Origin: Anaerohalosphaeraceae bacterium
GTDB taxonomy: Bacteria; Planctomycetota; Phycisphaerae; Sedimentisphaerales; Anaerohalosphaeraceae
Assembly (NCBI GenBank): GCA_050309605.1
Contig: JBNRMN010000092.1
Coordinates: 17,928-81,927, forward strand
Length of the DNA stretch: 64,000 nucleotides
Direction of reading: 5' to 3'
Position numbers: made by a program. The stretch's first letter is position 1. Every line of letters begins with the position of its first letter. Shown piece after piece: positions 29,401-32,400 of this stretch.

Positions 29401-32400
29401 ACGACCGCGGACGTCTGCTGATCAGCCCGAACCATTGGGCGTATTTACGCATCAGCGAGGGATGCGATCGAAAATGTTCGTTTTGTACGATTCCCGCTAT
29501 CCGCGGCCGATTTCGGAGCAAGCCGTTGGAACTCGTCGCCAAGGAAGCACAGGAACTAGTCGAAAACGGGGCGGTCGAACTGAGTTTGATCGCACAGGAC
29601 AGCAATTATTACGGGCGCGACCTGAAAATGAAAAACGGCCTGGTTCAGCTTATTGCTGAGCTGGAAAAACTCGAATCGCTCCGCTGGATTCGACTGATGT
29701 ATCTGTATCCGTCCGGGATCGATGAAGCCCTGCTGGAAGCGATGGCGCAGAGCCAAAAAGTCGTTCATTACGCGGATATTCCGATGCAGCACATCAACAA
29801 TCGAATTCTCAAGTCGATGCGCCGAGCGGATACAAAGGAAAACAATCTCCGTCTGATTGAACGGCTGCGAATGCTGATGCCCGATGTGGTTCTGCGAACG
29901 ACGATCATCGTCGGCTATCCGGGCGAAACAGAAGCGGAATTCGAAGAACTGCTGGAGTTTGTCCGCCGGGCAAAGTTTGATGCGCTGGGTTGTTTTCCGT
30001 TTTACGCCGAGTCGGGCACACCCGCGGTCGAGCTGCCCGATCAGGTGCCTCAGGACATCAAGCTGCAACGCGTGGACCGATTGATGCGAACCCAACAGGA
30101 GATGCTGTTTGCCAAAATGAACGCGCGAATCGGAGACGAATTGACGGTGCTGGTCGATGAAACGGGGCCTGATGGGGCAATCGGGCGTTACTACGGCCAG
30201 GCTGCGCACATCGACAGCGTCTGCCTGATCAGGGCCTGCGACGATCCGCCGGGCACATTCATCAAAACCCGCATCACCGGACGCGATGGATACGATTTTA
30301 CAGTGGAAAAAATATGACCCATACCAGCGCGGCACAATAGCGCGGCCGCGCAAGCGGCCCGATAAGCGATGCGAATACGCCAAACGCTTTTCGAGGCGGA
30401 GTGTATTATCCGGCGGCTCGCGCCGCTCGGCTGGTGTACGACGACGCAATGGCGCGGCGCAACAGCGCGGCCGCGCAAGCGGCCCGATAAGCGATGCGGA
30501 TACGCCAAACGCTTTTCGAGGCGGAGTATTATCCGGCGGCTCGCGCCGCTTGGCTATTGTACGATGACGCAATGGCGCGGCGCAACAGCGCGGCCGCGCG
30601 AGCGGCCCGATAAGCGATGCGAATACGCCAAACGCTTTTCGAGGCGGAGTATTATCCGGCGGCTCGCGCCGCTCGGCTGGTGTACGACGACGCAATGGCG
30701 CGGCACAATAGCGCGGCCGCGCAAGCGGCCCGATGAGCGATGCGGATACGCCAAACGCTTTTCGAGGCGGAGTATTATCCGGCGGCTCGCGCCGCTCGGC
30801 TGTTGTACGATGACGCACTGGCGCAGCACAATAGCGCGGCCGCGCGAGCGGCCCGATAAGCGATGCGGATACGCCAAACGCTTTTCGAGGCGAAGTATTA
30901 TCCGGCTCACTCGCGCGGTTCGGCTATTGTGAATCAATGACAGCAGGATTTATGATGGATACAAATACAATGGTCAATAAACCTGAAAAAGGAATCATTC
31001 GGCATATTCCCAATGCCCTGACAGTCGGCAGACTGATTTTGACGCTGATCTTTTTGGGGATGATTCTGTATGCGCCGAAACTGGAGCAGGACAAACCCGC
31101 CGCCTATTTAATGGGAGCGTTCGTCTTGTTTGTGGTGGCCGGTCTGACGGATATTGTCGATGGCCATCTGGCACGAAAATATGAGGTAACCAGCCGGTTC
31201 GGTCGAACGGTGGATCCGCTGGCCGACAAGATTCTGGTCTGCGGGACGTTTTTTTGTTTTGCGATGGTCGCCCAGCCGCGTCTGGCCGGTTTCGGCTTTT
31301 CCGATACGACGCTTCATGTGATTCGCTGGGGGACGGCGGTCATTCTTTTTGCGCGGGAGGTGGCGGTGCAGACGCTGCGGCACATCGCCGAGTCGCACGG
31401 CGTCAACTTCGGTGCTGTGGTCTATGGCAAAATCAAGATGTTCCTGCAATCGTTCGGCATCGGCACGGTGCTGATCGGCTGGGCGTTTGTCTCGCGTCCG
31501 TGGGGCGATTGGTTTACGTTGGTCACGTATTTTTTGATGGTCGTCGCGACTGTGTTGTCCGGGATCCATGCACTCCGACGCGTCCGACACTGATGGTTAT
31601 GCGGCACGGATTGGCCGGTTTCTTTGAACCGTCATCACAAATCCGAATAACCGTGTCGCCTGCAAACGGTTGGAATGCAGAAACAAAAAAGGCCGGCTCT
31701 CAGTGAACCGGCCTTTTTTCTGTTAAGGCACTCAATGAAGTGTTTAGACTTAGAAGCCCAAACTGTAGGTCAATCCGCAGAACAGATAATCCTTTTTGTT
31801 GTCATTCAGGGTGCGAGTGAACATGTTCTGGAAATACACCGCAGGCGTCAGCGTGCCGCCGGTCAGGGGGCACTGCATATCCGCTTTCAGACCCCAGAGC
31901 ATATGCGTCCAGCCATTGATGACGCTCTTATCCACGACGCCGTCGTTATAGACAATATCCCAGGAGAAGGTCATCGGAACATCGGGCACTTCATTCAGCG
32001 TAAAGTTATAGTCCGCACCGACTTGAACGATGCTGCCGCTGGCAAAGCTCAGAGGTGTGCCATCGGGAGCGGTGCTTCTGCCGCTGCGGGCCTGCCACAG
32101 ATAGTAGTAGTTCACGTGAGGAACCAGGCCGGCGCCGACGAGATTCGGCATATCCATCTCCAGGAAGACTTCCTGATAGTCCACACCCTTGGACGGCATA
32201 TCGATCAAATCATAGTACCGCCATCCGAGTGTGTAGTCGGTTTTCAGGCAATCGCCTTCGAGAACGCTGCCGCCATAGTACAGCGTGTACTGATATTCCG
32301 TGGCGTTGACGGTGCCGGCATTGTGACCGTAAGCTGCCAGCAGGTTGGCGCCGAAACCGCCGCCCAGGTCAAAATCCACACTGGGCTTCCACACCGGCGA

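Follow-up and report, generated by a model that had tools for sequence, protein, structure and literature searches.

Five copies of a selfish, non-coding hairpin-pair repeat of the REP/BIME kind, joined head to tail, make up the 600-base stretch that separates a RimO/MiaB-type gene from a CDP-alcohol phosphatidyltransferase gene. Positions refer to the window, i.e., the whole stretch of 64,000 nt that was analysed from contig JBNRMN010000092.1 (C92) of the Anaerohalosphaeraceae bacterium assembly GCA_050309605.1 (genome G000). TRF placed the array at 30327-30930 (period 123, 4.9 copies, 93% matches, score 1020), which reproduces the tandem array described in an earlier note on this DNA. On the + strand, the ORF 28839-30317 stops 10 nt ahead of the array, and 6 nt separate the end of the array from the ORF 30937-31593, in which in-frame ATGs at 30952 and 30955 are preceded by AGGA (30945-30948). 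The locus comprises the following features.

28839..30317, + strand: upstream gene for a 492-aa radical-SAM methylthiotransferase of the RimO/MiaB type (Pfam UPF0004, 84 bits; Radical_SAM, 87 bits; TRAM_2, 46 bits)
30318..30332, + strand: leader, a single copy of a 12- to 13-nt motif (..ACCAGCGCGG), identified by sequence and from the flanks of arrays and single units
30333..30437, + strand: unit 1, consisting of L hairpin, centre, and R hairpin (nhmmer match C92:48260-48364, model positions 2-104)
30438..30458, + strand: linker 1, 21 nt, the tail ACGAYGACGC plus one leader-like motif (linker table)
30459..30560, + strand: unit 2 (nhmmer, 82.5 bits)
30582..30683, + strand: unit 3 (nhmmer, 78.8 bits)
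30704..30806, + strand: unit 4 (nhmmer, 83.5 bits)
30827..30930, + strand: unit 5 (nhmmer, 77.1 bits)
30561..30581, 30684..30703, and 30807..30826, + strand: remaining array linkers (linker table)
30937..31593, + strand: downstream gene, CDP-alcohol phosphatidyltransferase, PgsA-like (Pfam CDP-OH_P_transf, 109.5 bits)

Unit 1 scored 77.7 bits on the + strand versus 65.1 bits on the − strand in nhmmer. The R arm of unit 5 is the CCGGCTCAC variant, which also occurs in the last unit of the orthologous array of the congener G043. A spurious 187-aa frame runs through the array.

In each unit of about 104 nt, two related GC-rich hairpins, L and R, form a heterodimer and are inverted around a variable centre. 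L combines a 6-bp stem with a GCAA or GCGA loop, and R has an 8-bp stem that includes one G-T pair and a bulge; the foot sequences in the alignment are GCGC on L and CCGA on the strand complementary to R. The centre spans about 20 or 38 nt and is poorly conserved (0.758), with a candidate helix that is paired in just 78.8% of cells. Linkers are made of the 10-nt tail and one or two copies of a 12-nt motif derived from the L foot, and they fall into length classes of 13-14, 20-21, 24-26, and 37 nt. The leader motif, found ahead of most first units, likewise reproduces the L hairpin's 5′ foot.

The hairpins are selected as two local stems. These were paired in 94.3% of cells versus 87.7% in shuffles, a level reached by 0 of 500, and their covariation score was 0.176 versus 0.064 (0 of 500 shuffles as high), in line with the compensatory stem variants claimed before. 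Across 58 units, pair 15-25 is GC in 27, CG in 25, and AU in 4 (other, 2), and pair 89-98 is CG in 35, GC in 19, and AU in 1 (other, 3). The outer part of the R stem requires a G-U pair in 54 of the 58 units and thus forms on one strand only. One long hairpin joining L and R was rejected, its pairing being reached by 496 of 500 shuffles; of the 58 units, 43 leave the discriminating L-R pair 15-98 unpaired and 38 leave 25-89 unpaired. The arms mostly carry opposite stem variants ("hetero" in 41 units, "homo" in 12), which likewise disfavours a single long hairpin. The fold energy of single units was not better than that of shuffled sequence (z of −0.77 and −0.90). A comparison with MITEs of DDE transposons revealed inverted unit ends (ACAAYAGC...GCTRTTGT), and the flanks of 38 oriented loci contained leader repeats and no regular target-site duplication. 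Separately, one 278-nt segment present in G000 only has a 9- to 10-nt direct repeat at its ends. Translated intercistronic repeats of the MIRU type served as a further comparison class; a coding repeat of this sort was rejected, array periods being divisible by 3 in only 18 of 48 cases, among them the 123-nt period of the array studied here.

An iterated nhmmer census of both strands of the whole assembly with the 104-nt model returned 261 matches, corresponding to 133 places at 62 loci, of which 102 places cover the whole model and hence both arms. Arrays of two to six units, invariably head to tail, occupy 33 of the 62 loci, with periods of 110 to 142 nt besides some larger gaps. The repeat family itself is thus as described in the earlier note, with counts that differ from its 218 hits at 57 loci. 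The mostly intergenic location was also confirmed: 98% of the unit bases lie outside genes (228 of 11,652, or 2%, fall within gene calls, which are crude). Several other figures did not hold. Separate arm HMMs found 245 places, 230 within units and 15 outside, in 63 of 2,180 intergenic regions, rather than the 280 of 1,483 linked regions reported; the total is 11.7 kb of unit bases and 14.6 kb of array span (0.43% of the genome), not ~21 kb; and a breaking of the assembly at several contig ends was not confirmed by the 6 of 194 ends that lie less than 500 nt from a unit. Long units resemble each other more within arrays (0.897) than between arrays (0.833), and 28 of 74 have their nearest neighbour in the same array versus 1.9 expected. 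Nonetheless, a likeness of at least 92% is reached by 238 of the 2,931 pairs of long units from different arrays, which suggests copying between loci after the species split, a process that needs an enzyme or gene conversion.

The spread of the family predates the split between G000 and G043 and postdates the departure of their lineage from the other congeners searched. Matches occur in 12 of 61 family genomes, G000 included, and G043, a sister species of ~92% nucleotide identity, has 27, arrays among them, versus 42 in G000. Near-confinement to this species is therefore refuted, and its recency, deduced from species specificity, lost its support because G043 shares the sites. All four unit sites at 29000-48000 of the window are occupied in G043, with differing copy numbers. 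Besides the array, these are as follows.

36597..36732, + strand: single unit (36631-36732) after 3.7 copies of the 13-nt leader motif (TRF, nhmmer, site A alignment); in G043, a short unit, an Acido-Lenti-1-bearing insert, and a unit; in G019, no repeat
37907..38028, + strand: single unit (37925-38028) with leader repeats (TRF, nhmmer); ~2.5 units in G043, none in G019
46785..46888, + strand: single unit immediately upstream of a gene start (nhmmer); breakpoint of two contigs in G043, solo R-type hairpin in G019

In G019 (~79% identity), the repeat is absent from three of the four sites and the solo R-type hairpin marks the fourth (46785). More distant congeners have short spacers at these loci and no array between the same genes; their spacers are so diverged that junctions cannot be placed. 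Also against a recent spread, long units of different loci are 83% alike on average, below the likeness of flanking DNA between G000 and G043. After the split, arrays would have grown and shrunk locally through unequal recombination or slippage between head-to-tail units, a course that is in part shown and in part inferred. Copy numbers in G000 versus G043 are 5 versus 2, 2 versus 1, 1 versus ~2.5, and 4.5 versus a solo R hairpin, the last being one possible outcome of array collapse; these differences fit gain in G000 and loss in G043 equally well.

Among known systems, the earlier assignment to BIME/REP-type intergenic repeats stands: the family consists of GC-rich, extragenic palindromes in many copies, with two inverted subtypes, set linkers, and tandem arrangement. 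Neither the canonical GT[AG]G foot nor identical REPs at the flanks of the resident RAYT were found. BIME-2 elements of E. coli are tandem Y-Z REP pairs with set linkers. The units share with them two REP subtypes of alternating orientation, a few linker lengths, and tandem, extragenic placement, often past gene ends, but they lack the GT[AG]G foot, have a longer centre (about 20 or 38 nt), and show no link to the class 2 RAYT of this genome, whose REP is a different one. Relative to REPINs with RAYTs (Bertels and Rainey, 2011, PMC3116915), the family also repeats an inverted REP doublet (both arms in 102 of 133 places) that outnumbers any potential mover gene; it differs in that a long hairpin is not favoured and no cognate gene was found in G000.

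The closest counterparts are the hairpins associated with TnpAY1 class 3, a group defined by Quentin et al. (2018, PMC6006769), where BIME-2 appears as background. The passages on this class list the protein signatures NHVH, W[TA], and YV[VI]xEQ, and flanking hairpins with a CnGA foot that reach ~600 copies in one genome. Our comparison draws on that description, the foot, and the gene motifs. Common to both are Planctomycetes and Acidobacteria as hosts, GC-rich hairpins, a high copy number, and, in relatives, units that bracket a gene with class 3 motifs. A foot of the CnGA type is seen on the complement of the R arm (CCGA) and is absent from the L arm. The differences are that no such gene was found in G000 and that the units are heterodimers in head-to-tail arrays of up to six, a layout that the class 3 passages cited above do not mention.

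We consider that the family is probably selfish DNA of the REP/BIME/REPIN kind, spread by a class 3 enzyme before the split of the sister species and reshaped later by local array change. At the present locus, the co-orientation of both flanking genes makes it probable that the array is transcribed within their mRNA, and a comparison with the BIMEs of E. coli suggests that it may change mRNA decay or read-through. The family's movement would have been as single-stranded DNA via the class 3 HUH/Y1 transposase. The evidence comes from a ~167-aa protein of relatives with the motifs HVRTNHVH, KVWT, and IHYVVYEQG, i.e., the class 3 signatures. Its gene lies between full units in G051, of the same genus, and in G031 and G024, of two other genera, and it has unit-like doublets next to it on the metagenome loci L237, L238, L240/L241, and L242. 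Across phyla, a repeat common to both near flanks was present at 75 of 78 testable class 3 loci, and the corresponding control values were 0 of 58 (outer flanks) and 7 of 58 (flanks taken from different loci). The copies nearest to G000, in G051 and G024, are frameshifted. At the G051 locus, one neighbour is orthologous to a gene on contig C66 of G000, where there is no unit. A single-protein search, a profile search, and a six-frame hmmsearch at E ≤ 10 that found five positive controls did not detect the gene in G000, nor was it found in the congeners G043, G019, G030, and G037, so that the class 3 link rests on relatives. This absence from G000 is not proven, since the assembly is a 97-contig MAG and a repeat-bracketed gene could sit on a short unbinned contig. 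Metagenome contigs scanned with the G051 protein yielded no relative, and a profile scan yielded 445 relatives, with G000-like flanks in 0 of the 80 kept. The statement that the mobilising enzyme is unknown thus holds insofar as none was found in G000; the unit-bracketed gene of relatives now provides a candidate. PMC6006769 itself calls for experiments on class 3 enzymes.

A more specific version, which we advance tentatively and regard as rather doubtful, is that the G000 units are orphan class 3 doublets whose gene was lost in this genus or is decaying, as in G051, and that in two sister species the doublets, interleaved at the same intergenic sites with the hairpin arms of a second Y1 system (subclass 1.2 type, equated with Acido-Lenti-1), stay the commonest repeat while their copy number changes by recombination alone. 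If so, the genus would be a natural experiment on the persistence and amplification of REP-type repeats without their enzyme, and Acido-Lenti-1 would gain further evidence of being a DNA repeat rather than a small RNA. Abundant repeats in two sister species whose cognate gene was not found bear on how far REP-type elements depend on a transposase. The tandem arrays, the apparent orphan state, and the coexistence of three Y1-hairpin systems in one genome set this family apart within a kind that is already known. The little-studied class 3 HUH/Y1 system also gains a concrete candidate substrate anatomy, in which two hairpin types form a heterodimer with the foot CCGA, leader motifs, and a fixed tail. 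As the array family accounts for ~0.4% of the G000 genome and several contig breaks, its arrays should not be annotated as RNA genes, CRISPR-like loci, or ORFs.

Acido-Lenti-1 (RF01687) had been proposed to be a module of the element. All nine G000 matches above the cut-off lie 0 to 228 nt from a unit, which upholds the reported adjacency. However, eight of the nine fall inside a separate ~285-nt repeat that abuts units, and the array units have no match at the gathering threshold in the window or at E ≤ 10 in 29800-31500. Requiring two hairpins and at least 37 bits, only 1 of 133 units passes, aided by a neighbouring hairpin: on contig C34, an R arm aligned to hairpin 1 and the following UUCG hairpin jointly score 40.3 bits. 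Resemblance is confined to the R hairpin, which is similar to hairpin 1. [quoted passage not shown] The RF01687 family (Weinberg et al., 2010, PMC2864571) shares with the units multiple copies and tandem arrays, with seed matches 192 to 200 nt apart; those in G024 are 70 to 74 nt apart. The array units differ by lacking hairpin 2, and within the genus Acido-Lenti-1 flanks another Y1 type and was not found near class 3 genes. As a class 3 hairpin partner it is unsupported (20 diverse class 3 loci gave 0 matches above the gathering threshold), and RF01687 was not detected at E ≤ 0.5 in nine class 3 loci of this family. In congeners its hairpins flank a different, IS200-like Y1 gene of the subclass 1.2 type; matches on both sides of the Y1 gene at five of eight loci are independent support for a transposase-associated DNA repeat.

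G000 has two intact-looking Y1 genes, a class 2 RAYT on contig C90 (98.7 bits, NF047646, cut-off 80) and a subclass 1.2-type gene on contig C63 (77 bits, NF033573, cut-off 55), and movement of the units in trans by one of these would make a class 3 enzyme unneeded. In congeners, the C63-type gene is flanked by the motif to whose hairpin 1 the R hairpin aligns, which points in this direction, as does the Acido-Lenti-1-bearing insert, always 0 to 41 nt from a unit. Nevertheless, the C90 gene lies between the two halves of an unrelated 43-nt inverted repeat of its own (98% complementary, ~9 genome copies), and no unit was found at that locus at E ≤ 10; the 12 loci searched around strong PF01797 genes of the genus yielded neither a unit nor an arm at E ≤ 0.1; and G019, G030, and G037 own both genes yet have few or no units. 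We thus regard a resident mover as quite improbable. That the units persist chiefly because of a function as RNA (an intercistronic or 3′-UTR stabiliser, an attenuator, a protein-binding site, or a small-RNA array), with mobility secondary, is also unlikely, if slightly less so. In its favour, the genes on either side of the array are co-oriented, and no terminator-like site was seen on the + strand. Such a role also agrees with a unit orientation that matches the flanking genes at 11 of 14 loci with co-directional neighbours, with the frequency of loci between convergent genes (16 of 54, versus 13% of all intergenic regions), with the one-strand hairpin implied by the outer R stem, and with the GCAA or GCGA loop of L. 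Conversely, the 11 of 14 is weak (one-sided binomial of about 0.03, crude gene calls), divergent genes flank 10 of the 54 loci, and strand-specific hairpins are equally expected of a single-strand DNA transposase. The centre is poorly conserved and its candidate helix weakly paired, the units have no Rfam match, and no dosage is conserved, since sister species vary freely in copy number at the same locus and the array is missing from close congeners. Unit orientation was not biased relative to local GC skew as a proxy for the replication strand (24 concordant, 17 discordant, n = 41).

That the array is a metagenome assembly artefact of collapsed or chimaeric repeats is highly improbable. No Logan contig of four runs crosses the array, the contigs ending at 30352 and 30863, so that the count of five units rests on this assembly, and the contig ends close to units fit such an artefact too. 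No RNA run was listed as containing the stretch, and one run of doubtful type (X18) contributed short pieces only. On the other hand, unit-junction pieces that are specific to this array (e.g., 30412-30476 and 30740-30802) recur, with 0 or 1 differences, in runs that come from separate studies, the divergence among the five units is 4 to 7% and ordered, and an array is also present at this site in the sister species.

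Tandem Repeats Finder, run on the whole window, returned a single strong tandem array (period, 123; 4.9 copies; 93% matches; score, 1020) in the spacer between a rimO-type and a pgsA gene:

28839-30317, + strand, RimO/MiaB-type methylthiotransferase ORF, so named because it carries UPF0004, Radical_SAM, and TRAM_2 domains; its stop lies 10 nt before the array start
30327-30930, the array
30937-31593, CDP-alcohol phosphatidyltransferase ORF; the array ends 6 nt ahead of it

The five units of this array are 93 to 96% alike. Short-read contigs from four runs of different studies contained both the flanks and array-specific junction pieces with 0 to 1 differences, and all ended at the array edges. 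No Rfam family reached its gathering score anywhere in the window, and no Acido-Lenti-1-like sequence was found in 29800-31500 at an E value of ≤10. Since the + strand of the array yielded no terminator-like site, it is probably transcribed between its two genes and, by analogy with the BIMEs of Escherichia coli, might influence the mRNA. No RNA run was among those listed as containing this DNA. Frames at 30369-30932 (+; 187 aa) and 29556-30818 (−; 420 aa) stay open across the array only because the 123-nt unit is free of stops in them, the former being a by-product of a unit of 41 codons; gene callers could list both as proteins. Over all arrays, 18 of 48 periods are divisible by three, and hence no reading frame is kept.

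The unit core spans 103 to 105 nt, or 85 to 88 nt in a short form devoid of ~18 nt of the centre. It comprises, 5′ to 3′, a left hairpin (L; ACAAYAGCGCGGCSGC-GCRA-GCSGCCCGATA), a poorly conserved centre, and a right hairpin (R; ATCCGGCSGC-TYGC-GCSGCTCGGCTRTTGT) that is an inverted variant of L. Linkers have set lengths (13 to 14, 20 to 21, 24 to 26, and 37 nt), and in each the tail ACGATGACGC precedes a 12-nt motif, present once or twice, that reproduces the 5′ foot of L. One to three copies of the same motif make up the leader of first and single units, as in the 13-nt repeats (Tandem Repeats Finder) at window positions 36597-36644 and 37907-37939. An R arm of the CCGGCTCAC type occurs in 20 of 102 units; at window position 46785-46888, it appears to be a 36-nt deletion fusing two adjacent R-type hairpins, which are separate in the sister species G043.

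Folding was assessed on 58 aligned units from this genome (G000), G043, the congeners G019 and G051, and two other genera (G031 and G024). The alignment clearly supported L and R as two local hairpins, with 94.3% paired cells versus 87.7% in shuffles and a covariation score of 0.176 versus 0.064, neither value being reached in any of 500 shuffles; slid controls of stem pairing gave 31 to 45%. One stem position switched between G-C, C-G, and A-U in 27, 25, and 4 units in the L arm (2 unpaired) and in 19, 35, and 1 units in the R arm (3 unpaired). A single long hairpin joining L to R was unsupported, as 496 of the 500 shuffles equaled it, and its two discriminating pairs were unpaired in 43 and 38 of the 58 units. 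The L and R variants were mostly opposite (41 hetero versus 12 homo units). The outer R stem depends on a G-T (G-U) pair in 54 of 58 units and therefore forms on one strand only. A lone unit folded no better than shuffled sequence.

To take a census of the G000 assembly (3.40 Mb, 97 contigs, 54.5% G+C), in which the window occupies C92 17928-81927, we ran three rounds of nhmmer seeded with three units and merged the hits of both strands. The 261 hits collapsed into 133 places, 102 of which span the whole 104-nt model, distributed over 62 loci with a single unit (29 loci) or two to six units (33 loci); orientation was uniform inside every array. The repeat family claimed in the earlier note is real and of the REP/BIME/REPIN type, and the note's 57 loci and 218 hits were therefore about right. 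Its total of ~21 kb was too high, the unit bases amounting to 11.7 kb and the array span to 14.6 kb (0.43% of the genome), and its 280 linked intergenic regions out of 1,483 were not reproduced: arm-specific HMMs identified 245 arm places (230 within units) in 63 of 2,180 intergenic regions. By the calls of a simple purpose-made gene finder (2,418 genes, 85% coding), genes cover 228 of the 11,652 unit bases. Gene pairs around the 54 loci away from contig ends were convergent at 16, co-oriented at 28, and divergent at 10, the genome-wide intergenic shares being 13%, 74%, and 13%, respectively. Units were oriented as their co-oriented neighbors at 11 of 14 loci, a tendency that is suggestive only, and no link of unit orientation to GC skew was found.

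A BLAST-type search with one unit as the query returned matches in 12 of 61 family genomes, G000 counted. Within the genus, they were distributed as follows:

G000, this genome: 42 matches
G043, congener: 27 matches, many of them nearly full length and arrayed
G051, congener: 6 matches
G019, congener: 4 matches
G030, congener: 1 match
G037, congener: 0 matches
G047, congener: 0 matches

Half-unit matches were found in four further genera. The arrays of G043, at the same sites, show that the family had wrongly been called species specific. The RimO-type proteins of G043 and G000 are 93% identical, and their syntenic DNA is ~92% identical. The rimO-pgsA spacer of G043 holds one long and one short unit, the last of which shares the CCGGCTCAC R arm variant with unit 5 of the G000 array; in G019, G030, and G037, the spacer is plain, a few dozen bases long, and without units. 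The other three unit sites of window positions 29000 to 48000 are all occupied in G043 (a short unit, an insert, and a unit; ~2.5 units; and a contig break), and in G019 the repeat is absent at two, with a solo R-type hairpin at the third (window position 46785). The unit family is therefore older than the split between G000 and G043 and younger than their separation from the other congeners searched. The solo hairpin of G019 (site of window position 46785-46888) lies just upstream of a gene start.

Copy number differs between the two species on contig C1, where two units in G000 correspond to one in G043 and 4.5 units to a solo R hairpin; either gain in G000 or loss in G043 would produce such differences. 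Long units were more alike within arrays (0.897) than between arrays (0.833). The nearest relative of 28 of 74 units of multi-unit arrays lay in the same array, versus 1.9 expected by chance, and that of the other 46 lay elsewhere. Orthologous units of G000 and G043 were only 81 to 87% alike, below their flanks, and 238 of 2,931 between-array pairs were at least 92% alike. These patterns suggest that arrays change locally as head-to-tail units are duplicated or deleted, and that loci exchange some sequence via conversion or transposition; a solo R hairpin like that of G043 is just what a collapse between two R arms would produce. Also on C1, a 278-nt repeat-bearing segment absent from G043 (26300-26578; L230 2301-2579) contains a degenerate unit along with leader motifs, two hairpins of the R type, and one that resembles a terminator. 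It is bounded by a 9- to 10-nt direct repeat, GTCGGATTG, present as a single copy in G043. The difference could reflect either an insertion with target duplication or a microhomology-mediated deletion.

G000 has two PF01797 genes:

contig C90, 77499-78192 (L130 1200-1893): class 2 RAYT gene, 190 aa, NCBIfam REP_Tyr_transpos NF047646 at 98.7 bits (cut-off, 80)
contig C63 (L115 1230-2050, gene 1477-1935): IS200-type Y1 gene, 152 aa

A search of both loci found no units near them, which bears out the earlier observation for the two Y1 genes. On either side of the RAYT gene lies a 43-nt inverted repeat of its own (98% complementary), which is unrelated to the units, forms a hairpin with a GTGG-like foot, and has about nine genome copies, three of them beside the gene. 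The C63 protein ends in Y-IQN-Q-PE-HH, the subclass 1.2 signature of Quentin et al. 2018 (PMC6006769). Its gene is preceded by a long C/G-run hairpin and by a ~60-nt two-hairpin repeat in two tandem copies.

In G051, a Y1 gene of a third kind sits exactly between two full units. Its relatives in G031 and G024 are also bracketed by units, and unit-like doublets adjoin such genes at the metagenome loci L237, L238, L240/L241, and L242. The intact proteins (~167 aa) share MYNxPLAYFITFTTYGTWLHGD, HVRTNHVH, KVWT, and IHYVVYEQGE and score weakly on PF01797 and NF047646. In Quentin et al. 2018 (PMC6006769), class 3 TnpAY1 proteins are characterized by NHVH, W[TA], and YV[VI][AENY]EQ and assigned to Planctomycetes, Acidobacteria, and Proteobacteria; their genes, putative transposases, have atypical hairpins on their flanks (foot, CnGA), with up to ~600 copies in one genome. 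The motifs of the unit-bracketed proteins fit this class, and the complement of the R arm starts with CCGA. Eighty class 3 loci were kept from species-representative genomes. The flanks were long enough for a test at 78, and 75 of these had a repeat of at least 21 nt common to both near flanks (45 inverted, 30 direct); in the controls, the counts were 0 of 58 with outer flanks and 7 of 58 when the flanks came from different loci. Many of these repeats are alike, with CGAGCC leading into a stem and a GNRA-like loop that G-C closes. The unit family is best placed among the class 3 TnpAY1 hairpins, which that paper outlined as a kind in 2018.

Neither a single-protein search nor a five-sequence profile found a class 3 gene in G000, G043, G019, G030, or G037, and a six-frame hmmsearch of G000 at an E value of ≤10 found none while recovering five control loci. 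G000 is rated 99.7% complete, and a scan of the metagenome collection yielded no class 3 locus with G000-like flanks. Yet many metagenome class 3 loci are on contigs of 1 to 2 kb, and a 0.5-kb gene between repeats could lie on a short unbinned contig; its absence from G000 is therefore likely, not proven. In the class 3 genes of G051 (C240; L125 995-1510) and G024 (C5; L142), the N-terminal part is in another frame, the shift lying near a run of C in G051; a real frameshift or an error of assembly would explain this.

Acido-Lenti-1 (RF01687) gave nine hits above and three below the cut-off in G000. All nine lie 0 to 228 nt from a unit, as the earlier note had found, but its reading of Acido-Lenti-1 as a module of the element does not hold: the units of the 30327-30930 array were unmatched at an E value of ≤10, and eight of the nine hits fall within a separate ~285-nt multi-hairpin repeat that ends in the Acido-Lenti-1 match. 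There are five or six full copies, each 0 to 41 nt from a doublet unit, including:

C63, 32123-32407 (L009 1285-1569)
C62, 13450-13717
C92, 11196-11487
C22, 4-298
C74, 4-295

At the ninth hit (C34), the model aligns its hairpin 1 to an R arm, which is followed by a UUCG hairpin. Thus, the R hairpin resembles half of the Acido-Lenti-1 motif, and the units are not Acido-Lenti-1. The first 67 nt of the ~285-nt repeat, which comprise two C/G-run hairpins, are also found by themselves at ~15 sites, not all of them close to units. RF01687 hits (E ≤ 0.03), some above the cut-off, flanked the Y1 gene on both sides at five (G043, G047, G030, G051, and G037) of the eight loci in the genus with a strong PF01797 gene; none was found at such loci of G000 at an E value of ≤1. 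Class 3 genes had no RF01687 hit nearby, either above the gathering score at 20 diverse loci or at an E value of ≤0.5 at 9 loci of this family. In G000, module 1 of the ~285-nt repeat is present 49 nt downstream of the Y1 gene on C63; in G043, the Acido-Lenti-1-bearing part of that repeat lies on both sides of the Y1 gene, in inverted orientation.

Taken together, G000 presents three separate Y1-hairpin systems:

subclass 1.2 Y1 with Acido-Lenti-1-type arms
class 2 RAYT with the 43-nt REP
class 3-type doublets, their gene apparently absent

Members of the first and third systems interleave at shared intergenic sites. This nesting, the head-to-tail heterodimer arrays, and the apparent absence of the cognate gene from the two species richest in the repeat are the noteworthy features.

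RF01687 occurs in 48 of the 61 family genomes, with up to 50 hits per genome, which places it in a planctomycete lineage outside its namesakes, Acidobacteria and Lentisphaerae. In G024, hits form head-to-tail runs 70 to 74 nt apart (C25, 37366-37706; C43, 25962-26146; C35, 31685-31803), and several seed-alignment hits of Weinberg et al. 2010 (PMC2864571) are 192 to 200 nt apart on one contig.
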